Below, piece by piece: positions 3,197 to 15,660 of a DNA stretch of 15,660 nucleotides (position 1 is the stretch's first letter; every line of letters starts with the position of its first letter). The notes beneath the pieces were generated by a model. That model saw only the letters and a list, made by a program, of their open reading frames with translations, had not been told where the DNA came from and searched no databases. A program made the position numbers and the translations under genes. The DNA comes from a virus (Duplodnaviria > Heunggongvirae > Uroviricota > Caudoviricetes), in the IMG/VR virus record IMGVR_UViG_3300010367_000170. One strand, given 5' to 3'.

Positions 3197-3559
3197 CTAC
3201 TTAGACCGCTTAGCCTTGCCCCCAGCCGGAGCAGCAGGCTCACCCTGCGTCTCAGCCGACTGGGGATCATCCTTCACTTCCGGACCGGCCGAAGTCCCCC
3301 GCTTCGGAGCTTCCTGACCCCCAGAAGCCTGCTCCTGCTCCTGCTCCTCGCCGCCCCGGTACGGCTCCCAGTCGGTAGCGTTCTTGTCGCTGTCGTCCGG
3401 GATCCACTCCTGAGCGTCCTGACCCGGAGCGTTCAACTTCAACTTCGACTGCGAGTTCTCCACCTGATGCCGGACATGATGCCCTTCCGGCCACTCGGAA
3501 CGCCGCATCGGCTGCTGCTGATTGCCAGTTGCCATCTCGTGCGCACTCTGAAAATCCAT
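3197..3559 (-). CDS. Tad2/DUF2829-like small protein (putative nucleotide-signal sponge) with an acidic, low-complexity C-terminal tail
   Basis: Residues 1-67 follow the DUF2829 pattern as I recall it: M-x-F-x-x-A...R-x-x-W (MDFQSAHEM...MRRSEW) and W-x-P-x-x-x-D-x-x-A-x-D-W (WIPDDSDKNATDW). The remaining ~50 aa are E/Q/G/A/P-rich. Confidence 0.6.
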   Translation of the reverse strand: MDFQSAHEMATGNQQQPMRRSEWPEGHHVRHQVENSQSKLKLNAPGQDAQEWIPDDSDKNATDWEPYRGGEEQEQEQASGGQEAPKRGTSAGPEVKDDPQSAETQGEPAAPAGGKAKRSK

Positions 3560-6799: not shown

Positions 6800-8479
6800 C
6801 TAGCCATCTTGACCCCTTCCCGGGCCGGGGAGCTGCTTCAGAGCCTGCTTCCGCCTAGCCCTGTACGCCTTGTCCCAAGAAGCTGCGAGAGCCCGCGTAT
6901 CACTCTCGTACGCGGTTTCCTTCTCACCCTGAGGCAAACCCACATTCGCTGGGCCTCCGGGCCGCACCGAAGGCGACATCTTCGCACCCGGTTTCAAATC
7001 CGGAACCGGAGCGATCAAACCAGCCTTCACCGCAGCCTGCATAGCCGCATCCGAACCCCACGGAGAAGGCTCCTCCGCAGGCTCCGGCAAACCAGGCACA
7101 TACCCGTTCACCCCGGCAGCCGTCAACGGCGCAGCCTTGTTCGCCACCGACGCCCGCGACATAGCCTCCATGTCGTCCCAAGCAACAATGCCCTGACGAG
7201 TCTCGAAGACGTTGATGTCACCGCCGTCAACCGGAGGCTTACCCAGCTCAGCCCGGTAATCGTTCAAGCTGTAAGCGCCGGTCTTCAACCGGGTCTCCCG
7301 CACCTGCTCCACCGTCACCGAATCCCGGAAGTCCACCTCAGCGAACTCCAGATGCCAGCCGACAATGCCGAAACCCTGCTGAACCAGGTGGAAGTTCAAC
7401 TTCTCCAACAACAAGTTGGCGATCGGGATGACCGTGTTCACCTGGAACGACTTGTTCTGGGCCTCACCCGAACCGCCACCGATGTTGCCGGTCTCGATGA
7501 TCCCCACCTTGGAGGGGGGAACCCCGAACGAGGCGATGATCTGATCCCGCAGAACACGCTCCGCATCCAGGTAGTCCGTGACCTTGCGTGGATCCAACAC
7601 CTGCACCGCGCCGCCACCGGAGGTGATCAGCGGGTTGCCGACAGCCTTCGGGCCCAGGTTGTACACCTGGTACTGCTCACGCCACCGCTGAATGTCGGTG
7701 TCCTCGTAATGCGCCAGATCCACGTGCACCCGTGGCGGGTCGCCTCGCCGGAACGTCTCCTGGATCGTGGCCATGGTGAAGATCCACGCCGTGGTAGGCA
7801 ACAGGGCAAGCTGAGCCGGGCTGACCCCGTACAGCCCTCCGCGCGGAGCGTCCAACGAAATGTGGATCACGTCTTCGGTGTCAAAATGCGCCTGCCGCAG
7901 CCCATCCACATCCTGCCGATACCCGGCAACCTCGCCGTGAGAATCCGCCATCACCGTCATCGTCGTCGAATCCAGCAGATACAACGCCACCGGCTCACCC
8001 AGCAGGCGAACAACCTCAATGTAGGAGTCACCGAACAGCATCAAATCGGTGATCACGTTCCGGAGCAGCTGGATGAAGTCTTCCGTCGGGTTGGTGAACC
8101 GCATCAGCCTGCGCAGCCGCAACACCTCCGGCGGCTCCTCCGGGACCTCGTCCTCGGGGATAGCGTCATCCGGGATGACTTCCAGACCGCCCGCCGTCAC
8201 CGTGCGGGCGATCACACCGATAGCAGCGGACATCCACGTGCACGTGTTGTAGGCGTCGTGGAGGTGCTGCAACAACTGCTGACGCTCCGCTGACGCCGCC
8301 ATCTGAGCCGAAGGCATCTCGGAGGTGAGAGGCACACCGAACTCGAAGCCTCGACGCCGGATCTGCTGCGCCGTGTACTCAGGTGTCAGAGCCTGCGCTG
8401 TCGGTGTCTTCGTGGTGGCTTCCACAACGGCCGGAGGGTCAGGCCGGAACAGGCGTGCCAGGGCGTTGCCGACTCCCAT
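6800..8479 (-). CDS. Phage portal protein
   Basis: 559 aa, downstream of terL, GGAGG RBS. Portal-like motifs: LMLFGDSY, VIHISLDAP...YGVSP, IIASFGVPPSKVGI, SLNDYRAELGKPPV. Confidence 0.93.
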   Translation of the reverse strand: MGVGNALARLFRPDPPAVVEATTKTPTAQALTPEYTAQQIRRRGFEFGVPLTSEMPSAQMAASAERQQLLQHLHDAYNTCTWMSAAIGVIARTVTAGGLEVIPDDAIPEDEVPEEPPEVLRLRRLMRFTNPTEDFIQLLRNVITDLMLFGDSYIEVVRLLGEPVALYLLDSTTMTVMADSHGEVAGYRQDVDGLRQAHFDTEDVIHISLDAPRGGLYGVSPAQLALLPTTAWIFTMATIQETFRRGDPPRVHVDLAHYEDTDIQRWREQYQVYNLGPKAVGNPLITSGGGAVQVLDPRKVTDYLDAERVLRDQIIASFGVPPSKVGIIETGNIGGGSGEAQNKSFQVNTVIPIANLLLEKLNFHLVQQGFGIVGWHLEFAEVDFRDSVTVEQVRETRLKTGAYSLNDYRAELGKPPVDGGDINVFETRQGIVAWDDMEAMSRASVANKAAPLTAAGVNGYVPGLPEPAEEPSPWGSDAAMQAAVKAGLIAPVPDLKPGAKMSPSVRPGGPANVGLPQGEKETAYESDTRALAASWDKAYRARRKQALKQLPGPGRGQDG

Positions 8480-8515: not shown

Positions 8516-8803
8516 ATGGCGAAACCCCAATGTCTGAAGTGTTCTAACACGGCCACGATCGCCATGCTGTGCGGACGGTGTCACCGGAACCAGCAGCCGA
8601 CCGAAAGTGTCGTGGCCCCACCGTCCGGGAAGCGTCCGGAAATTGCTGTACCTGCGGCCTTGCCGAATAACCGGACAGTCGAGGTTCCAGAAACGCGCTG
8701 CGAGGGACCGCAGTGTCCGGAAATGGTGGAGCAGCCGACCGGAGCGGGCAGACGCCGGAGGTTCTGCTCCGAAGCCTGCCGCAAACGCGCCGCCCGCACC
8801 TAG
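8516..8803 (+). CDS. 95-aa double zinc-finger protein, antisense between terL and portal
   Basis: N-terminal CxxC-x9-CxxC and C-terminal C-x4-C...GRRRRFCSEACRKRAAR (FCS/CGNR-like finger). Fills the terL-portal gap, and its stop overlaps the terL stop in the palindrome CTAG (8800-8803). Confidence 0.62.
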   Translation: MAKPQCLKCSNTATIAMLCGRCHRNQQPTESVVAPPSGKRPEIAVPAALPNNRTVEVPETRCEGPQCPEMVEQPTGAGRRRRFCSEACRKRAART

Positions 8804-10356
8804 ATCCCCCAAGGGTTCCCGGACGGGTGCAGCACCGGGAAGCCTCCGATCGTCTGACCGGAGTAGCCCGGGGTGAAATCCCCCCGCGCCTGAGGATCCA
8901 GCCTCACCTCAATGCCCGTAGGGACCGGCTCCGGCCAGTGGAACCGGGTTTCCGTCCCGAGGTTCACCAGCATGTACCGCAGTGCGTCAGCGGCGTGGTC
9001 CGGTGCCTTCTGGTCACTGTCCTCCGGGTTGCCGGTCTTCGCGTACGGCAAGTCCGCCAGCTCCGAGAACAGTTTCATACACGGCGAGAAAATGTGCAGC
9101 CTAGGGCAGGTGTCCCAGCCCTCAGCCTGATGCATCCGGCAAGCCGGAGCCTCCGCCAGGTACGAATGGATCCGCTGCCACCCCGCGATACGGGAACCAG
9201 GACCCTTACCGGCCTTCTCCAGGTGCACACCGTTCTCCGCATACGCCGTCGCCAACGGCTTAGCGTCTCCCAGAACGTTCCACATCGCGTCGTCGGCGTA
9301 ACGGGCGTTGATGTGCTCGTCCACACTCTCAGCTGCAAGTATCTGCCGCGCCTGGTCTGCCTCGCCCACCCCGGTCTTGTAAAGCTCCCGGTAGATCCAC
9401 AGGCGGTTGTCCTCATCCAACGCGCCCCACAGAACAGCCCACGGTGCGGCGAAACCCCAGTCCACCGACATGTACCGGCGCCAAGAATGCGGCAGCTCCA
9501 AAGGCTTCACCACGTGCCGGTCATACGACAGCTCCGAGAAGATCTGGCCCTCAAAGACGTCCCAGTTACCCTCCAGGTACGCCTTCCGCAGCTGCTCCGG
9601 CAGGCCAAGCAGGTCAGTGCGGTACTCCTCGTTCAAGTGCGGGTTGTCCGCCAACTTCGACGGAATGAAACGCACCGACCGGCCACGGACGTCCCTGATG
9701 ACCTCGGAGCCGTACTTGGTGGGCTTGATGTACCGGTCCTTTGCGGCGCTGTGAGAAGGGCCTCCAGGGTTGCTCCCGGACCTGATCCCCAGCACCGGAA
9801 CCCCCGAGTTACCGGAACGCAGACGAGACTCGATAAACGTCAACACGTCAGCCGAAGTCAGAGTGCGCTCATCAAACAACAACAGCTGAAACTCCGAACC
9901 CTGCCTACGGGAGGCGTCCACCATGTTCTCCGCATACCGGAACATCAGAATGCTCCCGTTGGGAAACCGCAGCTCATAGTCACTGCCAGCCCACTTAGCC
10001 CCCAAGACGTTAGCGAAGCCGTGCGCCGCCAACTCCTTGATCAACGACTCCTTCAGCTCCGGATACGTCCGCCGAAACGCACCCACCCGAATCCCCGGAA
10101 ACCGCACACACGCCCTGATGCCCTCCATCAACAAAGCAAGCGTCTTCCCCCCGCCCATCGCACCCCCGTACAACACGTCATACTCCGTGGCGTCATGAAA
10201 CGCCTGCTGACGCGGGGTCGGCTCGTACCCCAGAGCCTTGAACACATCAACCCTGCGCAGCTTCTCCATCTGGACCTGCTGATAGCGGGCCTGAAGCCGC
10301 TTCAACTCCTCCAACCGGGAGAGCTTGTACTGCGCCAGGCTCATCTCGCCACTCAT
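8800..10356 (-). CDS. terL: Terminase large subunit (518 aa)
   Basis: Walker A YGGAMGGGKT, Walker B LLLFDE, coupling motif SGSNPGG, nuclease-domain SVDWGF and DHAADALRY. Start reassigned to ATG 10356 because GGAGG lies 9 nt upstream. Confidence 0.96.
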   Translation of the reverse strand: MSGEMSLAQYKLSRLEELKRLQARYQQVQMEKLRRVDVFKALGYEPTPRQQAFHDATEYDVLYGGAMGGGKTLALLMEGIRACVRFPGIRVGAFRRTYPELKESLIKELAAHGFANVLGAKWAGSDYELRFPNGSILMFRYAENMVDASRRQGSEFQLLLFDERTLTSADVLTFIESRLRSGNSGVPVLGIRSGSNPGGPSHSAAKDRYIKPTKYGSEVIRDVRGRSVRFIPSKLADNPHLNEEYRTDLLGLPEQLRKAYLEGNWDVFEGQIFSELSYDRHVVKPLELPHSWRRYMSVDWGFAAPWAVLWGALDEDNRLWIYRELYKTGVGEADQARQILAAESVDEHINARYADDAMWNVLGDAKPLATAYAENGVHLEKAGKGPGSRIAGWQRIHSYLAEAPACRMHQAEGWDTCPRLHIFSPCMKLFSELADLPYAKTGNPEDSDQKAPDHAADALRYMLVNLGTETRFHWPEPVPTGIEVRLDPQARGDFTPGYSGQTIGGFPVLHPSGNPWGI

Positions 10357-10780
10357 ACTCAGCGCCCTCCAGGCGAAGCTGCTTACCCAACTCCTCAATC
10401 TGCCGGTCAATGGCATCCACTGAGGTGATCTCCAAGTTGACCTGGAGCGTCGGATCCAGCTTCAACAGCTTGGTGATACGGTCCGTGGTCTTCAAGACCA
10501 TCTCACCTGCACCCTTGTCGGCTTTGATGGCGTCCGGCCAGAACGCGCGCCTCATCCGCAGCAGCACCAGCAGCTGTTCCTCGATGAGGAGGTCAACGTT
10601 GCGGTTGCGTTCCATGACGTGCTGTTCAAGAGCGCGGTCAAGGTCCTTGCAGGCGGATGCACGATCTGCGTAGCCCAGCTGGTCTGCGATCTGCTGGAAG
10701 GTGAGGCCAGCGAGTTTCAGCTCAACGGCTTGCGCTCTGCGTTTGGCTGTGACGATTCGTTGTGCTTTCGATGCTGCCAT
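10247..10780 (-). CDS. terS: Terminase small subunit (HTH type)
   Basis: N-terminal HTH (RRAQAVELKLAGLTFQQIADQLGY), helical middle, KLLKLD and IDRQIEEL coiled segments; immediately upstream of and overlapping terL. Confidence 0.8.
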   Translation of the reverse strand: MAASKAQRIVTAKRRAQAVELKLAGLTFQQIADQLGYADRASACKDLDRALEQHVMERNRNVDLLIEEQLLVLLRMRRAFWPDAIKADKGAGEMVLKTTDRITKLLKLDPTLQVNLEITSVDAIDRQIEELGKQLRLEGAEYEWRDEPGAVQALPVGGVEAASGPLSAGPDGEAAQG

Positions 10781-10849
10781 CGTTGGCCTGCTTTCTGTGT
10801 TGGCGGGTACTTGCCGACACGGTAAGTCAGGTAAGGCGTGGTGGTCTAG

Positions 10850-11173
10850 TTAGCATTTGCAGCCTGGGTCTGGTGCTGGGCAGTCTTGTTTGTGTGTTTT
10901 GGCCATTTGGTCCCCGTTGGGGTGGCCGTCGGTTGTTTTGGGGGCGTGTTGGGTGCAGGCGTATATGGCGGCGAGGTATGGGGGTGGGCTGTGGTGGCGT
11001 GGGCCGTAGGGTCCTTGGGTGTTGAGGTAGGTGTTTTCTTCGTTTTGGGTGGCGTGGCGTTGCCATTGCCAGGTGGCTGGGTTGGTGCAGTGGGTGTTTT
11101 GGCAGCCGGGGGCTGTGGTGAGGGTTTCGCCTTCGGCGTTGAGGGTGTGGTGTGTCCAGTGGGGTTTGGCCAT
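10850..11173 (-). CDS. 107-aa Cys/His-rich hypothetical protein
   Basis: Starts 4 nt after the stop of 11178..11570. Has C-x4-C, C-x2-H and C-terminal H...C...CxC clusters. Codon bias matches its neighbours. Confidence 0.6.
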   Translation of the reverse strand: MAKPHWTHHTLNAEGETLTTAPGCQNTHCTNPATWQWQRHATQNEENTYLNTQGPYGPRHHSPPPYLAAIYACTQHAPKTTDGHPNGDQMAKTHKQDCPAPDPGCKC

Positions 11174-11177
11174 GTTG

Positions 11178-11570
11178 TTAGGTGATTTCTAGTAGGTCGA
11201 TTTGTTTCACCGGGACTTCGGGGTTGTCGGTGATTTTGATCCAGACGTTGTAGGTTCCGGCGGTGAGCGGTACTCCGCTGTTGGCTGGGCCTACGAGGAT
11301 TTGGGCGAGGTAGGTGTTGGTGCCGGTGGTTGCCCAGGTGCCGGTGTGCCAGTCGGTGTTGGCGGGGTTGGCGTTGGCGGGTTGTGGCATGAATGCGAAC
11401 GCTACGGGGTCGGCGGTGGGGTTGTAGGGGAGTCCTCCGACGATGGCTTGTACGGGGTAGGGCAGGTTTTCGGTGTTTAGGGTGCTGCGGGTGACCATTT
11501 GGGTTCCGGGGTTGGTGTTGATACGCCAGTTGGTGGCGGCTGGTCCGATGGTGAACACGGGGTTGGTCAC
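11178..11570 (-). CDS. 130-aa beta-sandwich hypothetical protein (possible BppU-N-like structural adaptor)
   Basis: GTGA overlap with the upstream gene. I recall W-x-TG-x-W...ILVGP...L-x-AG-x-Y-x-VW-x-KITD-x-PE-x-PV as a recurrent Ig-like pattern in actinophage virion proteins. Confidence 0.6.
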   Translation of the reverse strand: MTNPVFTIGPAATNWRINTNPGTQMVTRSTLNTENLPYPVQAIVGGLPYNPTADPVAFAFMPQPANANPANTDWHTGTWATTGTNTYLAQILVGPANSGVPLTAGTYNVWIKITDNPEVPVKQIDLLEIT

Positions 11571-12079
11571 GTTGCGAGTCCTGGGTTCCCGGTGGCGGCG
11601 GGGATGGGGGTGGCACGGTTTGCGAGGTCTGCGGGGGTGACTGCGGCGGGGGATTCACGTCCGCAGTTCCAGTCGAGTCCGGCTGCTTCGCCGCAGGTGG
11701 CTACGAGCTGGGAGCAGATCATGGCTTTTTCGTTGTCTGCTGCGCGGATGAGCCAGTGCCAGTTGATGCCTAGGGCGTGGAGGGATAGGCGTGCGATGTC
11801 GAGCCAGCCGTATGGGGTGCCGATGAGGGTTTCAGCTTTGGCGATGGCGCGTTGTTGTTGTTCGGGGGTGAGGGTGTCTGGGGCGTAGAGGATGGTGTCG
11901 GTGCCGTAGGCGGTGAGGTTGGAGCGGCGTGCGCCTCCGGGTGCGCCTTCGATGATGCTGCCGTGGGTGTCGGTGATGAGGACGACGTGGTTGTACTTGG
12001 AGCGGGTGCCGATGCGGATGAGCCATCCGTAGAAGCCGCCGGTGCGTATGCAGGCGTAGGTTCCTGGCTGAGGGGTCAT
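11567..12079 (-). CDS. Permuted papain-like (YiiX/YebB-type NlpC/P60) amidase/peptidase, 170 aa
   Basis: Catalytic His before Cys: YNHVVL...IGTPYGW...MICSQLVA...VTPADL, the YiiX/YebB signature order. Start reassigned to ATG 12079 because the longer ORF runs into a promoter module. Confidence 0.82.
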   Translation of the reverse strand: MTPQPGTYACIRTGGFYGWLIRIGTRSKYNHVVLITDTHGSIIEGAPGGARRSNLTAYGTDTILYAPDTLTPEQQQRAIAKAETLIGTPYGWLDIARLSLHALGINWHWLIRAADNEKAMICSQLVATCGEAAGLDWNCGRESPAAVTPADLANRATPIPAATGNPGLAT

Positions 12080-12103
12080 GGTGTTTTCCCAGTTCGAAGG
12101 GGC

Positions 12104-12132
12104 TTTACTCCGCTTAGCAATTCCAGTAGGCT
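12104..12132 (+). promoter_or_regulatory. Cassette promoter P1 (sigma70/HrdB type)
   Basis: TTTACT-N17-TAGGCT, with GCTTAGC at 12112-12118 and ACCGGAGGAG RBS at 12153-12162. Confidence 0.8.
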
Positions 12133-12168
12133 TGCCCCGTAAGCCAAACCGCACCGGAGGAGAAGCCG

Positions 12169-12417
12169 ATGAACACCGTCACCGTCCCCAACAAGCTGAT
12201 GAAGATCATCGCTGACCTGCCGTGGATCGCTGACGCCGAGATCACCCGGAACGGTTCGAAAACCTCCATCACCGCCACCGACACCGCCCTGAAGACCGTC
12301 GGCAGCTACCTGCGCAGACTGGCCCGCGACGTCATGAACTCCCGCAACAGCGTCCCCAGCCACGGTTTCACCGCCTCCCAGCTGGAGCGGTTCGGCAAGA
12401 AGACGTTCGGCGGCTGA
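12169..12417 (+). CDS. 82-aa hypothetical protein (single antisense cassette)
   Basis: Has its own promoter, ACCGGAGGAG RBS 6 nt upstream, and a terminator 14 nt after the stop. Confidence 0.85.
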   Translation: MNTVTVPNKLMKIIADLPWIADAEITRNGSKTSITATDTALKTVGSYLRRLARDVMNSRNSVPSHGFTASQLERFGKKTFGG

Positions 12418-12431
12418 CGCGCCACACCAGA

Positions 12432-12459
12432 AAGCCCCCGGGAACGTTCCCGGGGGCTT
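12432..12459. terminator. Bidirectional terminator between convergent genes
   Basis: Perfect 28-bp palindrome AAGCCCCCGGGAACGTTCCCGGGGGCTT between the stops at 12417 (+) and 12469 (-). Confidence 0.85.
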
Positions 12460-12468
12460 CGCTGTGTC

Positions 12469-12669
12469 CTACCCCAGGACGCCTTCCCGTACGGCGCAGA
12501 GCATGGCGTCGGTGTGGACAGCGAACACAACGTTGTGGAACGGGTCCTTGAACAGGACGAACTTGCCGTCCTGCTGGAAGTAGCTGGCGTTGACGCCCAC
12601 TACGCTCTCCCCGCCGGACTGGGCGTATGTGACGAGGAAACGGAACGTCGGCAGCAGGTCGTTTGTCAT
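12469..12669 (-). CDS. 66-aa hypothetical protein downstream of tRNA-Met
   Basis: AGGAAG RBS; beta-rich sequence; fills the gap between the tRNA and the terminator. Confidence 0.65.
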   Translation of the reverse strand: MTNDLLPTFRFLVTYAQSGGESVVGVNASYFQQDGKFVLFKDPFHNVVFAVHTDAMLCAVREGVLG

Positions 12670-12681
12670 GGTCTTCCTGGC

Positions 12682-12705
12682 GGTGTTGGTGTTGGTGTTG
12701 GTGTT
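12682..12705. repeat. Short tandem repeat (GGTGTT)x4
   Basis: Four exact copies between the tRNA-Met 3' end and the RBS of 12469..12669. Confidence 0.9.
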
Positions 12706-12709
12706 TCTG

Positions 12710-12787
12710 TGGTAGCCGGAACGGGATTCGAACCCGTGACCTTCAGCTTATGAGGCTGACGAGCTGACCGAACTGCTCTATCCGGCG
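12710..12787 (-). tRNA. tRNA-Met(CAT) with encoded CCA; initiator-like acceptor and D-arm, non-initiator anticodon stem
   Basis: CGCCGGA/TCCGGCT acceptor (C1xU72 mismatch), A73, CCA; D-stem GAGC/GCTC; anticodon arm TCAGC-CTCATAA-GCTGA; T-arm ACGGG-TTCGAAT-CCCGT. Confidence 0.92.
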
Positions 12788-12879
12788 CCGGTGGGATGCC
12801 GCCCTTGAGGCGTGGTTGGCGATCGTCCTTCACTGTAGCGGCACTGGTGTCAAGTTGGGAAGTTCCATGTCGGATGGGC

Positions 12880-12908
12880 TTTACTCCGCTTAGCGTTTCC
12901 AGTAGAGT
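12880..12908 (+). promoter_or_regulatory. Cassette promoter P2
   Basis: TTTACT-N17-TAGAGT; GCTTAGC at 12888-12894; ACCGGAGGAG at 12930-12939. Confidence 0.82.
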
Positions 12909-12945
12909 TGGCCCTGCCAACAGAGACAAACCGGAGGAGAAGACG

Positions 12946-13149
12946 ATGGACATCACCCTCAGCACCCGACGCGGACTCCCCGGACACGCCCGAGTCCACG
13001 TTGACGGCAAGCAGGTCGGACTGGTGTCTCGCGAGCCCAACGGCTGGACCTACGCCATTTACATCCCCGGTGAGCAGCAGCCCCTCTATTCCAACGAGTT
13101 CTTCGCCAACCGCGACATGGCAGTCAAAGCCCTGACCCAGATGATCTGA
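12946..13149 (+). CDS. 67-aa hypothetical protein
   Basis: Start reassigned to ATG 12946, 6 nt after ACCGGAGGAG (MDITLSTRRG...ALTQMI). Confidence 0.82.
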   Translation: MDITLSTRRGLPGHARVHVDGKQVGLVSREPNGWTYAIYIPGEQQPLYSNEFFANRDMAVKALTQMI

Positions 13150-13166
13150 CCGGAGGAGAAACCCGC

Positions 13167-13379
13167 GTGAACCGCCAGGACTACAAGGAAGCCGCTGAGA
13201 AGCTGCTGAAGAAGGCTGAAAGCGACATCGATGGGGGCTACACGAACCCTAAGTTTGAGGCGTACACAAGCATCGCCCGCGTCTACGCCATGCTGGCCGC
13301 GCTGCCGGAAGAGCGGGGCCACCCCGACGTGCCGCAGCGCCCCATTGGCCCTGGCGTCTCTGACCGTATTGACGGCTAG
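13167..13379 (+). CDS. 70-aa helical hypothetical protein
   Basis: GTG start 8 nt after ACCGGAGGAG (13149-13158), which overlaps the upstream stop; second gene of the P2 unit. Confidence 0.78.
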   Translation: MNRQDYKEAAEKLLKKAESDIDGGYTNPKFEAYTSIARVYAMLAALPEERGHPDVPQRPIGPGVSDRIDG

Positions 13380-13392
13380 CGGTTCGACTGAC

Positions 13393-13423
13393 AGCCCCTG
13401 GGACTTTACAGGTCCCGGGGGCT
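13393..13423 (+). terminator. Cassette hairpin H3
   Basis: AGCCCCTGGGAC-TTTACAG-GTCCCGGGGGCT (12 bp, one G:U), followed by TTAC. Confidence 0.8.
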
Positions 13424-13451
13424 TTACTCTGCTTAGCGATTGCACTATGGT
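13423..13451 (+). promoter_or_regulatory. Cassette promoter P3
   Basis: TTTACT-N17-TATGGT; GCTTAGC at 13431-13437; CCCGGAGGAG at 13478-13487. Confidence 0.82.
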
Positions 13452-13493
13452 TGTCCTCAGCACCAAAACCACCACAACCCGGAGGAGAACACC

Positions 13494-14213
13494 ATGAAGC
13501 TCGCAGCCGTCCGTGACCGCCAGGGCAACATCCGCGTCCACGCCGCCACCTGCGCCGACGTCAACCGCGAGGTCAAGAAGTTCCGTGACGGCGACGCCTA
13601 CACCGGCGAGTTCGCCAGCCGCACCGAGTTCAACCAGGACTGGTGGGGCGAAGTGGCCGCTGACCACTACGCGGAGGGCACCCCGGAGTGGGAGAAGGAG
13701 TGCGCGGTCAACGGCTCCATGGGAACCCTGTTCCTCCCCTGCTGCTCGGACCTCCCGGAAGACGTGGAGCCGGAGCCGACCAAGCGCACCGCGTACCGCT
13801 CGCTGCGGACCAAGACGATCCACACCCACTCCTGCCCCGCCGTCGCCGCGATGCTGACGAAGGCAACCGGCGAGACCCTGCCGAAGCCGTGGGCTGCCTA
13901 CGACCCGAACCTGGCGTTGGAGGACGTCGCCGCGCACCCGGAGTGGGACTGCTCCCGCTGCTCCCGTATCCGGCGCGGAGAGCAGGCTGCTGCCCGCTCG
14001 CAGGCGAAGGCGGAGCCGCAAGGCTACTTCTCCGCTGCGGCGAAGGTGGCGCACACGGCGCAGTGCCCGTCGATGAAGGCTGCGGCGTCCGGGAAGCTGC
14101 ACATACCGCTGATGAAGACCGGGTTCAAGGCGCTGTCGGCGCTGCTGAGGATGATCGACACCGGCGAGGCGAAGGAGTGCCTGAGCTGCAAGAAGATCCG
14201 CCACTCGCACTGA
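13494..14213 (+). CDS. 239-aa protein with three H-x3-C...C-x(0-2)-C putative zinc-binding repeats
   Basis: Start reassigned to ATG 13494 after the cassette RBS. Repeats: VHAATC...PCC, IHTHSC...CSRC, AHTAQC...CLSC. Confidence 0.85.
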   Translation: MKLAAVRDRQGNIRVHAATCADVNREVKKFRDGDAYTGEFASRTEFNQDWWGEVAADHYAEGTPEWEKECAVNGSMGTLFLPCCSDLPEDVEPEPTKRTAYRSLRTKTIHTHSCPAVAAMLTKATGETLPKPWAAYDPNLALEDVAAHPEWDCSRCSRIRRGEQAAARSQAKAEPQGYFSAAAKVAHTAQCPSMKAAASGKLHIPLMKTGFKALSALLRMIDTGEAKECLSCKKIRHSH

Positions 14214-14225
14214 TGTCTCGACTGC

Positions 14226-14258
14226 AAGCCCCTACGACTTCACAGGTCGTAGGGGCTT
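14226..14258 (+). terminator. Cassette hairpin H4
   Basis: Perfect 13-bp stem AAGCCCCTACGAC-TTCACAG-GTCGTAGGGGCTT, followed by TCTTTT. Confidence 0.85.
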
Positions 14259-14285
14259 TCTTTTGCTTAGCGATTCCAGTATGGT
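14257..14285 (+). promoter_or_regulatory. Cassette promoter P4
   Basis: TTTCTT-N17-TATGGT; GCTTAGC at 14265-14271; ACCGGAGGAG at 14306-14315. Confidence 0.78.
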
Positions 14286-14321
14286 TGAGGTAACAACAGC
14301 GGCACACCGGAGGAGACCGAA

Positions 14322-14786
14322 ATGAGCACCTACTCGCAGGCGAGGATCAACCGGGGCCAGTCCGTTCACTCCGTCCTGCTGGACGACGAAGGTACTGTCT
14401 GCGGAACCCGCTGCATGTCGGAAGGCATCTACGGAACGCGGACCGCCTACCGCAAGACCTCCAGCCCGGTAAGCTGCAAGAAGTGCCTGAAGATCATTGA
14501 GGGATCGGAGCAGGCCCAGACCGGCCGTCCGGCGCACGGAACCATTGAGGCGCCCTCCGGAGTGGCCGTGGAAATCTTCGAAACCTTTGACCTGACGATT
14601 CTGGTGAAGATCACCGTGACGGCGGGAACGAGCCTGGGCCACGCTTGGCTGCGAGCCGACAACGCGGCGCGGGCGTGGGCCAAGAAGCACGGCGCTGGCG
14701 CAACGCTGGTGCGCGAGTCCGCAAAGTCGGACCAGCTGCCCGGGGGTGGCGTGGAGCACATGTACAAGTACCTCTGGTCCGTCTGA
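14322..14786 (+). CDS. 154-aa protein: N-terminal zinc-finger-like domain plus a C-terminal WLRADNAA domain
   Basis: Cassette RBS; VH...VCG...VSCKKC at the N-terminus; C-terminal domain shared with 14899..15519. Confidence 0.85.
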   Translation: MSTYSQARINRGQSVHSVLLDDEGTVCGTRCMSEGIYGTRTAYRKTSSPVSCKKCLKIIEGSEQAQTGRPAHGTIEAPSGVAVEIFETFDLTILVKITVTAGTSLGHAWLRADNAARAWAKKHGAGATLVRESAKSDQLPGGGVEHMYKYLWSV

Positions 14787-14797
14787 CGTCTCGGCTG

Positions 14798-14831
14798 AAG
14801 CCCTTCCCACCTTCACAGGTCGGAGGGGCTT
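14798..14831 (+). terminator. Cassette hairpin H5
   Basis: AAGCCCTTCCCACC-TTCACA-GGTCGGAGGGGCTT (one C-C mismatch, one G:U). Confidence 0.8.
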
Positions 14832-14858
14832 TACGTCGCTTAGCGATTAGGCTATAGT
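14830..14858 (+). promoter_or_regulatory. Cassette promoter P5
   Basis: TTTACG-N17-TATAGT; GCTTAGC at 14838-14844; ACCGGAGGAG at 14883-14892. Confidence 0.82.
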
Positions 14859-14898
14859 TGGTCTTGCCAACAGCGACACCACACCGGAGGAGAGAACG

Positions 14899-15519
14899 AT
14901 GAACAAGAACCAGATAACCAAGGCGCAGGGCAAGGTCTCCTACAAGATCAACACCAGCCTCACCTCCGCGCTGATCCTGGACACCACCGCCCTCTACACC
15001 GAGCGCACCTCCTGGGGCCAGCCCAACCGCTACTCCAAGTCCCCCCTGAGCGCCTGCAAGCAGGACAGGCTGGGCTGCGTCACCGTCGGCTGGCTGGTCC
15101 TCCACGTCTCCGCCTACGGCTACACCGCCGACATACAGGAGCGCACCGCCAAGGCTGAGGCGTTCATCGAGAGCTTCACCGGCACCGCTGCCGACGTCCT
15201 GGACGAGAAGGGCAACGTTCGACGCGACGTGGTTCCGGCGGACGTGAACGTAACCCTGGTCAACAACCGGAAGCTGTCCGAGCGGCAAGCCAAGCCGGAG
15301 GCTGACGGCCCGGTCCGCACCCAGGACGCCGGTGACGGCGTGAAGGTCGTGGAGGACGCGCGGCTGGTGGTGCGGGTGGCCGTCTCCGAGGGGACTTCCT
15401 ACCCGTGGCTGCGGGCCGACAACGCCGCCAAGGCGTACGCGAAGGAGTTCGGGAACGGCTCCAAGCTGGTCCGCAAGTCGGCTGCGAACGGCGTGTACGT
15501 CTACAACTGGGCCGCCTGA
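14899..15519 (+). CDS. 206-aa protein with a C-terminal WLRADNAA domain
   Basis: Cassette RBS; the C-terminal ~55 aa are paralogous to those of 14322..14786; the N-terminus is unrelated. Confidence 0.85.
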   Translation: MNKNQITKAQGKVSYKINTSLTSALILDTTALYTERTSWGQPNRYSKSPLSACKQDRLGCVTVGWLVLHVSAYGYTADIQERTAKAEAFIESFTGTAADVLDEKGNVRRDVVPADVNVTLVNNRKLSERQAKPEADGPVRTQDAGDGVKVVEDARLVVRVAVSEGTSYPWLRADNAAKAYAKEFGNGSKLVRKSAANGVYVYNWAA

Positions 15520-15530
15520 CGTCTCCACTG

Positions 15531-15566
15531 AAAGCCCTCCTGGTCTTCACAGGCCGGGAGGGCTTT
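15531..15566 (+). terminator. Cassette hairpin H6
   Basis: AAAGCCCTCCTGGTC-TTCACA-GGCCGGGAGGGCTTT (15 bp, two G:U). Confidence 0.82.
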
Positions 15567-15592
15567 CCTTTGCTTAGCGTTACCAGTATGGT
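15564..15592 (+). promoter_or_regulatory. Cassette promoter P6
   Basis: TTTCCT-N17-TATGGT; GCTTAGC at 15572-15578; ACCGGAGGAG at 15612-15621. Confidence 0.78.
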
Positions 15593-15627
15593 TGACCTGT
15601 ACGCCACACCCACCGGAGGAGCCCCAA

Positions 15628-15660
15628 ATGGACACCAAGCCCACCTACACCAAGTTCCAC
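15628..15660 (+). CDS. Start of the next cassette gene (partial, MDTKPTYTKFH...)
   Basis: ATG 6 nt after ACCGGAGGAG; open to the window edge. Confidence 0.75.
   Translation, partial: MDTKPTYTKFH

Follow-up and report, generated by a model that had tools for sequence, protein, structure and literature searches.

The window analysed here is a 15,660-nt stretch of DNA from an uncultured phage of soil source with a GC content of ~63%. Over ~3.5 kb of it (12100-15592), the pattern GGGCTTT-N5-GCTTAGC-N8-TAnnnT is matched exactly six times, at 12100, 12876, 13419, 14253, 14826 and 15560, always on the plus strand. In 6 of 6 copies this core is followed by TG, an A/C-rich leader, ACCGGAGGAG and ATG. 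The exact pattern had no match in 200 dinucleotide-preserving shuffles, and a looser pattern allowing up to three mismatches recovered the same six copies and none among the 12 kb of late genes. The six shared promoter modules described in the first-pass annotation are thus confirmed. The modules, designated P1 to P6, and the genes between them are as follows.

12100..12168, plus strand: module P1, with core at 12100-12132, -35 TTTACT, GCTTAGC box, -10 TAGGCT, leader and RBS; no hairpin lies upstream, and a divergent minus-strand gene starting at 12079 directly adjoins it
12169..12417, plus strand: cassette gene a, 82 aa, ORFan
12428..12460, no strand assigned: GC palindrome forming a hairpin that separates the convergent genes a and b; from its sequence, probably a terminator for both directions
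12469..12669, minus strand: gene b, 66 aa
12710..12787, minus strand: tRNA-Met (CAU), inside the array
12876..12945, plus strand: module P2, with core at 12876-12908, leader and RBS, without a hairpin
12946..13379, plus strand: two-gene cassette made up of c (12946-13149, 67 aa) and d (13167-13379, 70 aa)
13393..13493, plus strand: module P3, with hairpin at 13393-13424 (-28.7 kcal/mol, apex TTTACAG), core at 13419-13451, leader and RBS
13494..14213, plus strand: cassette gene E (W13494), 239 aa
14214..14321, plus strand: module P4, with stop context, hairpin at 14226-14258, core at 14253-14285, leader and RBS
14322..14786, plus strand: cassette gene F (W14322), 154 aa, with C-terminal domain B
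14787..14898, plus strand: module P5, with stop context, hairpin at ~14798-14831, core at 14826-14858, leader and RBS
14899..15519, plus strand: cassette gene H (W14899), 206 aa, with N-terminal domain C and C-terminal domain B
15520..15628, plus strand: module P6, with stop context, hairpin at 15530-15567, core at 15560-15592, leader and RBS
15629..15660, plus strand: first bases of cassette gene I, which is G59030-like, encodes 317 aa in the window's own genome and runs off the window

The array runs past the window edge, as had been proposed. Sequence L065 is 100% identical to 15305-15660 and then carries the following gene and another module, and the gene map of the window's own genome has four more plus-strand genes beyond the edge. 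Searches of the region against GenBank phages (megablast and blastn) matched only the tRNA-Met, which was also the only significant hit of the Rfam covariance models on 11900-15660. When 185,579 prokaryote genomes were scanned with the motif, no arrays were found; the three single hits, in unrelated MAGs, are about the chance expectation, and the scan gave no prophage and no host clue.

Architecture of the module

Modules P3 to P6 each carry a GC-rich hairpin upstream of the core, with energies from -27 to -35 kcal/mol (the P6 value was taken from L065, which is 100% identical there). Overall, the hairpins range from -27 to -37 kcal/mol and are found immediately upstream in every case in which the preceding gene runs in the same direction; P2 has none because its upstream genes are on the opposite strand. 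The stop context that the first-pass annotation had placed with a hairpin in four modules was likewise recovered, as TGAyGTCTC..CTG in P4 to P6 and as a decayed version in P3. The hairpin stems covary, with compensatory changes in 6 of 9 consensus pairs, while the apex TTYACAG is conserved. A classical terminator scan accepts only two of the hairpins, the T-runs being short. As read from the sequence, the T-rich hairpin tail (CTTTAC) is also the predicted -35 box of the promoter. An AT-rich upstream element is absent, and the GC hairpin stands in that position.

The geometry in the six copies is TTTACN-17 nt-TAnnnT, which fits an actinobacterial-type housekeeping-sigma promoter, the Streptomyces promoter consensus being TANNNT / BTGACN (PMC8780764), and we infer that the host phylum is actinobacterial. 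In a scan with the E. coli consensus, only P5 scores as a promoter. Contigs from RNA libraries of two studies cover 12039-12810 only and are informative on neither starts, ends nor strand. An inverted repeat in the leader that overlaps the -10 is found in ~40% of modules with a mean z of only -0.49, and is therefore no general feature. GCTTAGC or a one-base variant of it occupies fixed spacer positions 3-9 in the matched modules of several phages. A plain sigma-70-type promoter requires no specific spacer sequence. A plain promoter or terminator accounts for neither the invariant spacer box nor the conserved apex of the hairpin.

Conservation and cassette content in related phages

At least four genomes of related soil phages, as well as fragments, carry the module, in 44 distinct versions. 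The complete relative G001, in which the terminase is 84% identical and syntenic, has 17 copies, each before an RBS and start codon. Of these, 11 lie within 55.0-61.8 kb, in a mid-genome array (55-62 kb of 103 kb) that adjoins the terminase. Further copies are found in L083, L084 and five metagenome fragments. In a set of 31 distinct modules (those of the window, of G001 and of five fragments), only GGGCTTTAC, GCTTAGC, TA...T and TG have high information content, whereas all remaining positions are free to vary. Given that the spacing and core are invariant across the 44 versions while the rest is free, the core is under selection. The motif is absent from the distant relatives L027-L033 (terminase 56-72% identical), and repeat searches upstream of their terminases gave no obvious substitute motif. 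The terminase of the window phage is less than 40% identical to that of any cultured phage, and its best matches are Pelagibacter, Roseobacter and Arthrobacter phages, which are not T4-like.

The region of small genes diverges from the terminase and portal block, and relatives at ~76-86% nucleotide identity differ by whole cassettes. The order is E-F-H-I in the window, E-H-F-I in L083 and E-H-K-I' in L084; L077 and L072 have E-H(-I) with F absent, and L071 has tRNA-H-I. Gene F behaves as the mobile unit: it precedes H in the window, follows it in L083 and is replaced by K in L084. Gene a is present in L084 (70% identity) and missing from L083 and L076, while gene b, conserved in L084, L071 and G001, was lost along with a in L083 and L076. 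The c/d cassette is absent in L083 and L084, a different 77-aa gene fills that slot in L076, and gene c occupies another slot in G001. As the relatives are only 76-86% identical, the cassette events may be rare and old.

DNA blocks shared between relatives overlap by ~100 bp exactly at the modules, and the half-module identities follow the neighbouring genes, the hairpin half resembling the module of the upstream gene and the leader half that of the downstream gene. In the H-to-F module of L083, for example, the hairpin shares 0.91 identity with P6 and the leader 0.83 with P4. The L077 module resembles P4 as far as the -10 and P5 from there on, which places the crossover at the -10; in L072 the crossover lies in the -35/spacer. 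At all module-to-module junctions examined, core spacing is exactly in register and no core is duplicated or truncated. One assembled contig from soil run X1 also lacks F: with a likeness threshold of 90%, it runs from 14283 straight to 14857 and leaves out precisely cassette F. This joint lies in a repeat, and its short side has only 41 bases. Two kinds of difference are of another type: the a+b indel ends at the tRNA, not at a module, and domain swaps (C+B versus C+A) have their junctions inside genes. Upstream of E, L084 retains the remnant of a decayed hairpin that no gene precedes. The gain, loss and reordering of genes at the modules that the first-pass annotation had proposed is therefore largely borne out, in that presence, replacement and order all differ and the co-directional junctions lie inside modules and are chimeric. 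Where relatives could have kept the same genes in the same order, with no junctions at the repeats, the opposite was observed.

The description of the cassette genes as mostly unrelated did not stand. The C-terminal domain of W14322 and W14899 is common to both (40% identity, E 7e-12), and the W13494 domain recurs in cassette genes of relatives. Gene E has three H..C...CxxC units, and its C-terminal Cys-rich unit constitutes domain A, which is common to E, to the G001 genes G56590, G57296 and G60119, and to the J genes of L083 and L084. In G56590, domain C is joined to domain A, as against C+B in gene H. By sequence comparison, the domains of cassette genes are shared and swapped between genes. 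The cassette proteins had no match in Pfam, at most function-unknown families in PHROGs, nothing above noise in the Atlas and empty PDB sequence searches. A search with the 95-aa domain-B protein G58633 found only itself, and an AlphaFold model of W14899 (pLDDT 74) gave no significant fold match in the PDB or AFDB clusters. The cassette genes are thus ORFans; the array delimits a group of fast-turnover ORFans and shuffled domains, which are obvious candidates for roles in host interaction.

Function of the modules

The reading preferred here, to which we assign a probability of roughly 0.75, is that the composite module is both an insulated expression unit and a substrate for homologous recombination. 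In a module of ~110 bp, the GC-rich hairpin would end transcription of the upstream gene, and its CTTTAC tail would serve as the -35 of the next promoter, with the 17-nt spacer and TAnnnT following; a short leader with a strong Shine-Dalgarno sequence would then start the next gene. Nearly every small ORFan gene would then be its own insulated transcription unit, and the modules would most likely be read by host RNA polymerase early in infection. As the ~33-bp cores are direct repeats with invariant spacing, they could act as substrate for in-register homologous recombination. Exchange between two modules would delete, insert or reorder whole cassettes and leave one intact chimeric module. Promoter and terminator activity, early timing, the reading polymerase and the recombination pathway are what we infer from these arrangements. 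Among the recombinase families sought in G001, RecA and ERF gave no match and AAA_24 only one far below threshold; a weak sub-threshold RecT-like match is a lead only.

The modules might instead be purely regulatory and not promote exchange, with cassette differences arising by illegitimate recombination and selection for intact genes. Breakpoints in modules are partly forced, because modules make up nearly all intergenic spaces of the array and gene-sized indels must end there; neither the a+b indel nor the domain swaps involve a pair of modules, and the remnant before E in L084 also agrees with this explanation. We nevertheless regard it as unlikely, given that the junctions are in register with the sequence switch within or adjoining the 33-bp core, and that a reciprocal change in F/H order with ~100-bp overlaps is what homologous exchange predicts. 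More improbable is a system of the integron type, in which the hairpins or boxes would be sites for a dedicated recombinase. The crossover position differs between L077 and L072, which fits homologous exchange, each cassette has its own promoter, unlike integron cassettes, and G001 encodes no tyrosine (PF00589) or serine (PF00239) recombinase domain in searches with positive controls. These points make site-specific recombination very improbable, even though structured repeats flank single genes whose order differs among relatives.

A third possibility is that the core, with its GCTTAGC, is read by a phage polymerase, sigma factor or activator, or that the box is an operator switching the cassette class off or on. 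The fixed position of GCTTAGC in the spacers of several phages would be accounted for in this way, as would a hairpin apex that is conserved over covarying stems. However, the -35/-10 geometry is canonical, GCTTAGC outside the modules occurs at about chance frequency, neither avoided nor enriched, and the motif forms no arrays in the prokaryote genomes scanned. Searches of G001 for sigma-70 region 2 and region 4 domains, with positive controls, found neither; a search for a T7-type RNA polymerase (PF00940) likewise gave no hit, but none in its control set either, and G001 may encode divergent phage polymerases. On balance, we consider a phage-encoded reader improbable. A further reading, which we consider unlikely, is that the GCTTAGC box and the TTYACAG apex are recognition sites of a dedicated phage factor, which might regulate early genes globally, act as an antiterminator or target recombination to the modules. 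If so, the cassettes of these actinobacterial phages would be regulated and actively shuffled as a system, and the array would be more than a set of passive repeated promoters.

Comparison with known systems

Integron attC cassettes and CALINs resemble the array in having structured repeats between single, mostly unrelated small genes of variable order. They differ in that G001 has no integrase: neither an IntI tyrosine recombinase nor promoterless cassettes are found here, the cassettes having their own promoter and RBS, and the crossover position is variable. The host-takeover cluster of the Bacillus phage SPO1 has multiple sigma-A promoters and terminators and lies in the terminal redundancy. 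The likeness consists in numerous small genes, early in SPO1 and presumably so in the array, all or nearly all of which follow a strong (in the array, predicted) promoter of host type (for early host-takeover gene clusters, see PMC13401047). Cassette shuffling at repeats, however, is not known as the defining feature of SPO1, and the G001 array is mid-genome, not in a terminal redundancy. In halovirus HF2 (PMC8707807), repeated intergenic sequence classes act as promoters before phage genes; HF2, in contrast, is an archaeal virus with archaeal promoters, and its repeats are not known to be linked to terminator hairpins or cassette reordering.

The closest parallel, already drawn in the first-pass annotation and in keeping with the published definition, is with the promoter-early stem-loops (PeSLs) of the T4-type phages RB49/phi1, PST/T4 and nt-1/KVP40 (Arbiol et al. 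2010, PMC2839356; Comeau et al. 2014, PMC4122927). Both are composites of a sigma-70-type promoter and a stem-loop, present in many copies in a region of small ORFan genes, and in both relatives differ by cassette insertion, deletion or replacement, with two motifs in one genome facing a single chimeric motif in the other. At the level of sequence, the array thus has the composite motif, the many copies in a variable region, and the motif-bounded differences with chimeras. It lies outside the original scope of PeSLs, namely T4-like myoviruses with an E. coli-type consensus and an AT-rich upstream region. There is no sequence relationship, and the lineage is a different one, from soil and with a GC content of ~63%. 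The promoter is of the TANNNT type, as opposed to the E. coli consensus with AT-rich upstream region; the order from hairpin to a tail that is the -35 is fixed, as opposed to five positional subclasses; and the GCTTAGC spacer box is invariant and the hairpin apex conserved. For PeSLs, experiments have demonstrated that the promoters and terminators are active and that mini-circles form, whereas promoter and terminator activity of the modules is predicted. No literature linking PeSL-type elements with actinobacterial phages was found within open-access text.

That the array represents a PeSL-like system in a new phage lineage is largely supported by these comparisons. The comparative evidence is clean, with the same two genes in opposite order and chimeric modules at every junction. 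The module would also be a compact, well-defined candidate promoter/terminator part for high-GC hosts. The PeSL principle, that portable stop-and-restart modules double as crossover points for accessory-gene swaps, would reach beyond the T4-type phages of Gram-negative hosts and include an uncultured soil phage lineage with high-GC genomes of ~100 kb.

The repeated module and its surroundings

As proposed in the first-pass annotation, the window carries six putative promoter modules. The motif GGGCTTT-N5-GCTTAGC-N8-TAnnnT has six mismatch-free matches, all on the plus strand (12100, 12876, 13419, 14253, 14826 and 15560, for P1 to P6, respectively), and none in shuffles of the window. Allowing up to three mismatches gave no site beyond these six, and none in the 12 kb of late genes. 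Downstream of every copy come TG, a leader rich in A and C, ACCGGAGGAG and a start codon. P3 to P6 have upstream hairpins of -27 to -35 kcal/mol (that of P6 computed from metagenome contig L065, identical to the window there), and the stop context TGAyGTCTC..CTG is common to P4-P6.

By base count, the core consists of TTTACN, a 17-nt spacer and TAnnnT, the layout expected of a housekeeping-sigma promoter; across 2361 start sites mapped in Streptomyces, the consensus is TANNNT accompanied by a weaker BTGACN (PMC8780764). Within the spacer, the GCTTAGC box fills positions 3-9. As the GGGG/GGG end of the hairpin directly abuts CTTTAC, the putative terminator's T-rich tail coincides base for base with the predicted -35 box. 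In an E. coli-type scan, P5 was the sole promoter and just two hairpins the classical terminators to pass; the assignments therefore draw on geometry, conservation and genomic setting rather than on the strength of the consensus. An Rfam search of the module region gave no family besides tRNA. About 40% of modules carry an inverted repeat of differing sequence (GGCTTG..TAAGCC or GTTGGC..GCCAAC), one arm at the 3' end of the -10 box and the other in the leader (12126-12160, 12902-12925 and 14852-14875 in the window), and this signal is weak over 44 modules (mean z -0.49). Many leaders include (C)TGTAAGC(C)A.

The minus-strand block stops at 12079, and small plus-strand genes run from 12169 on, their calls backed by a third-position GC of 0.80-0.93 and a strong Shine-Dalgarno sequence.

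Table. Genes in and beside the array.
6800-8479, minus: portal gene, late-gene block
8800-10416, minus: large terminase gene, late-gene block, alongside other late genes and several tRNAs
12169-12417, plus: gene a
12469-12669, minus: gene b
12710-12787, minus: tRNA-Met
12946-13149, plus: gene c
13167-13379, plus: gene d
13494-14213, plus: gene E
14322-14786, plus: gene F
14899-15519, plus: gene H
15629 to beyond the window, plus: gene I

The array extends past the window edge, as anticipated: L065 covers 15305-15660 at 100% identity and then carries a gene of 316 aa plus a seventh module, and the gene map of the phage's own genome continues with plus-strand genes of 317, 527, 140 and 64 aa, then convergent minus-strand genes.

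Between tRNA-Met and P2, a block at 12829-12862 (CACTGTAGCGGCA.GGGTGTCAAGTTGGGAAGT) is conserved in the relatives L083, L084, L071, L076 and G001; it holds TTGACA on the minus strand and may be the promoter of the minus-strand tRNA-Met and 66-aa gene b. Contigs of two soil metatranscriptome libraries from different studies, which give no strand or transcript ends, cover 12039-12810 (P1 cassette, 66-aa gene, tRNA-Met) as the sole part of the region. A Cys-rich plus-strand ORF (8516-8803, 95 aa) is flanked by the portal and terminase genes of the minus strand; in G001 and L083 a complete module precedes the plus-strand gene found at this point, and in the window just a remnant is left, TACAGG...TAGGGTTG. 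The gene directly adjoining P1 (11567-12079) hits PHROG 1128 (enoyl-CoA hydratase-like, 'host takeover' category; E 1e-26) and has a weak match to a permuted papain-like amidase. A minus-strand gene (3197-3559) has a weak, below cut-off match to Tad2-like Thoeris anti-defence proteins (E 3e-4).

Relatives and conservation of the module

The window is present in soil metagenomes. No cultured phage is close, the DNA-level match being limited to tRNA and terminase identity being below 40%. The complete relative G001 (IMG/VR contig IMGVR_UViG_3300045836_000108; 102,929 bp, direct terminal repeats) is syntenic with the window, with an 84% identical terminase. It has 17 motif copies (up to three mismatches): 11 plus-strand copies at 55.0-61.8 kb, which, like those of the window, begin just beyond the genes on the terminase side, and three minus-strand copies at 63.7-65.3 kb, upstream of convergent small genes. 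Each copy inspected precedes an RBS and start codon. Homologs of E led to two further contigs of ~100 kb, L083 (NCBI metagenome assembly) and L084 (Logan assembly), and a motif scan of JGI metagenomes to five short relatives (L065, L071, L072, L076 and L077). Among 185,579 prokaryote genomes, the same kind of scan found no arrays and three isolated matches, about the chance expectation.

Taken over the window, G001 and the five short relatives (31 distinct modules), information content is high solely at GGGCTTTAC, GCTTAGC(G), the TA and T in the -10 box and the TG after it, while the positions between vary freely; with L083 and L084 added (44 distinct modules), the spacing is fixed as before. 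Constancy of core and spacing while the rest varies argues for selective conservation rather than a leftover of recent duplication. Hairpin stems vary among modules yet pair, with double changes in 6 of 9 consensus pairs, and the apex TTYACAG is retained.

Reordering of cassettes and chimeric modules

Gene content between modules differs among relatives in presence, replacement and order, with the junctions between co-directional cassettes lying in modules.

Table. Order of cassettes (b is on the minus strand).
Window: a / b / tRNA / c,d / E / F / H / I / J
L083: tRNA / E / H / F / I / J
L084: a / b / tRNA / E / H / K (117 aa, no homolog) / I' / J
L077: E / H
L072: E / H / I
L071: b / tRNA / H / I
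L076: tRNA / different 77-aa gene / E

F and H are cleanly exchanged in order between the window and L083, as seen in the DNA blocks of E (13405-14316 to 9912-10816), F (14210-14848 to 11436-12080) and H (14783-15598 to 10708-11518); neighbouring blocks overlap by ~100 bp, a stretch that corresponds to the module. G001 is more divergent: its F-like gene (95 aa) occupies a different slot, and it has genes that combine domains differently. In L084, a decayed hairpin lies upstream of E without a preceding gene. As shared DNA of the compared phages is 76-86% identical, cassette events need not be frequent.

Since nearly all intergenic spaces in the array are modules, gene-sized differences must end in modules, and some are not bounded by two: the a+b unit (12105-12703), absent from L083 and L076, ends at the start of P1 and beside the tRNA. 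The argument for homologous exchange is therefore drawn from in-register chimeras, not from location alone. Where the window has E-P4-F-P5-H, L077 has one module between E and H, P4-like over hairpin, -35 box and spacer and P5-like from just past the -10 box; in L072 the switch lies slightly more upstream. Scored separately, the hairpin half tracks the upstream gene and the leader half the downstream gene, and exact core spacing is kept at all scored L077, L072, L083 and L084 junctions.

Table. Identity of module parts at junctions.
L083, E to H: hairpin 0.93 to P4
L083, H to F: hairpin 0.91 to P6, leader 0.83 to P4
L083, F to I: leader 0.91 to P6
L084, E to H: core 1.00 to P4, leader 0.93 to P5

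Against a site-specific, integron-like mechanism, the crossover position varies among junctions, and no tyrosine or serine recombinase was found in G001, where positive controls worked. As a separate line of evidence, a contig from soil run X1 joins 14283 to 14857 in the P4/P5 -10 region, skipping exactly cassette F; its short side has just 41 bases, it lies in a repeat, and it diverges again at 14935. It most likely derives from a co-occurring L077-like relative rather than an excision event. The sole hint of a phage annealing protein is a RecT-like match below threshold (20.3 bits against a cut-off of 24) at 2223-2498 of G001, in a 363-aa ORF possibly encoding a single-strand annealing protein that might act on short module homologies. 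The F/H order change, F-less relatives and in-register chimeras largely support the proposal that modules are points of cassette gain, loss and reordering.

The genes between modules, described initially as mostly unrelated, are not so, as domains A, B and C are shared and exchanged among them. H consists of domain C and domain B (WLRADNAA...YNW), and G56590 of G001 of domain C and the Cys-rich domain A, which is also C-terminal in E, G57296 and J genes; domain B ends F, H, I and G58633. This intragenic exchange points to recombination between paralogous domain-coding segments as a second source of novelty. Protein E (13494-14213) has three H-x3-C ... C-x2-C units (VHAATC...; IHTHSC...CSRC; AHTAQC...CLSC), probably small zinc-binding modules, the third being the shuffled domain A. 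A 514-aa ORF of G001 (60119-61663; L024:17121-18665) runs in frame through an entire module (core 61075-61107, leader, RBS and in-frame ATG, without hairpin) that separates an E-like N-terminal portion from a C-terminal domain A; the ORF resembles a fusion of two cassettes, in which an internal promoter and start codon may still serve a short domain-A protein.

Cassette proteins gave no match in Pfam or in a sequence search against solved structures, and nothing above noise in a protein atlas; PHROG matches, solely for E and F, are to function-unknown families, and H, modelled with moderate confidence (pLDDT 74), had no significant fold match. Effector roles are thus a guess from context.

Probable reading by the host polymerase, and comparison with PeSL elements

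Sigma-70 region 2 and region 4 domains were not found in G001 (positive controls worked), and a T7-type polymerase search of G001 gave no match, its control set being silent too; the most economical reading is therefore that the host polymerase would read the module promoters. From GC content, the Shine-Dalgarno sequence and the TANNNT promoter type, we infer actinobacterial hosts.

The PeSL (promoter-early stem-loop) of T4-type phages is a small cassette that pairs a strong sigma-70-like promoter with a terminator stem-loop; PeSLs gather in hyperplastic regions, upstream of ORFans, a cassette flanked by two PeSLs in one phage may correspond to a single PeSL in a close relative, and recombinant mini-circles with a chimeric PeSL were demonstrated by inverse PCR (PMC2839356, PMC4122927). 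The open-access literature held no paper linking PeSL-type elements to actinobacterial phages. The three PeSL features that can be read from sequence recur here; taxonomic and sequence scope differs. The reading of the array as a PeSL-like system of terminator-promoter cassettes, in a soil phage lineage that is new and uncultured, is largely supported, and there is clear comparative evidence that cassettes have been gained, lost, replaced and reordered at modules. Unlike PeSLs as described, the modules have a fixed overlap of terminator tail and -35 box, an invariant GCTTAGC spacer box and a conserved hairpin apex; the last two lack an explanation and are where novelty may yet lie.
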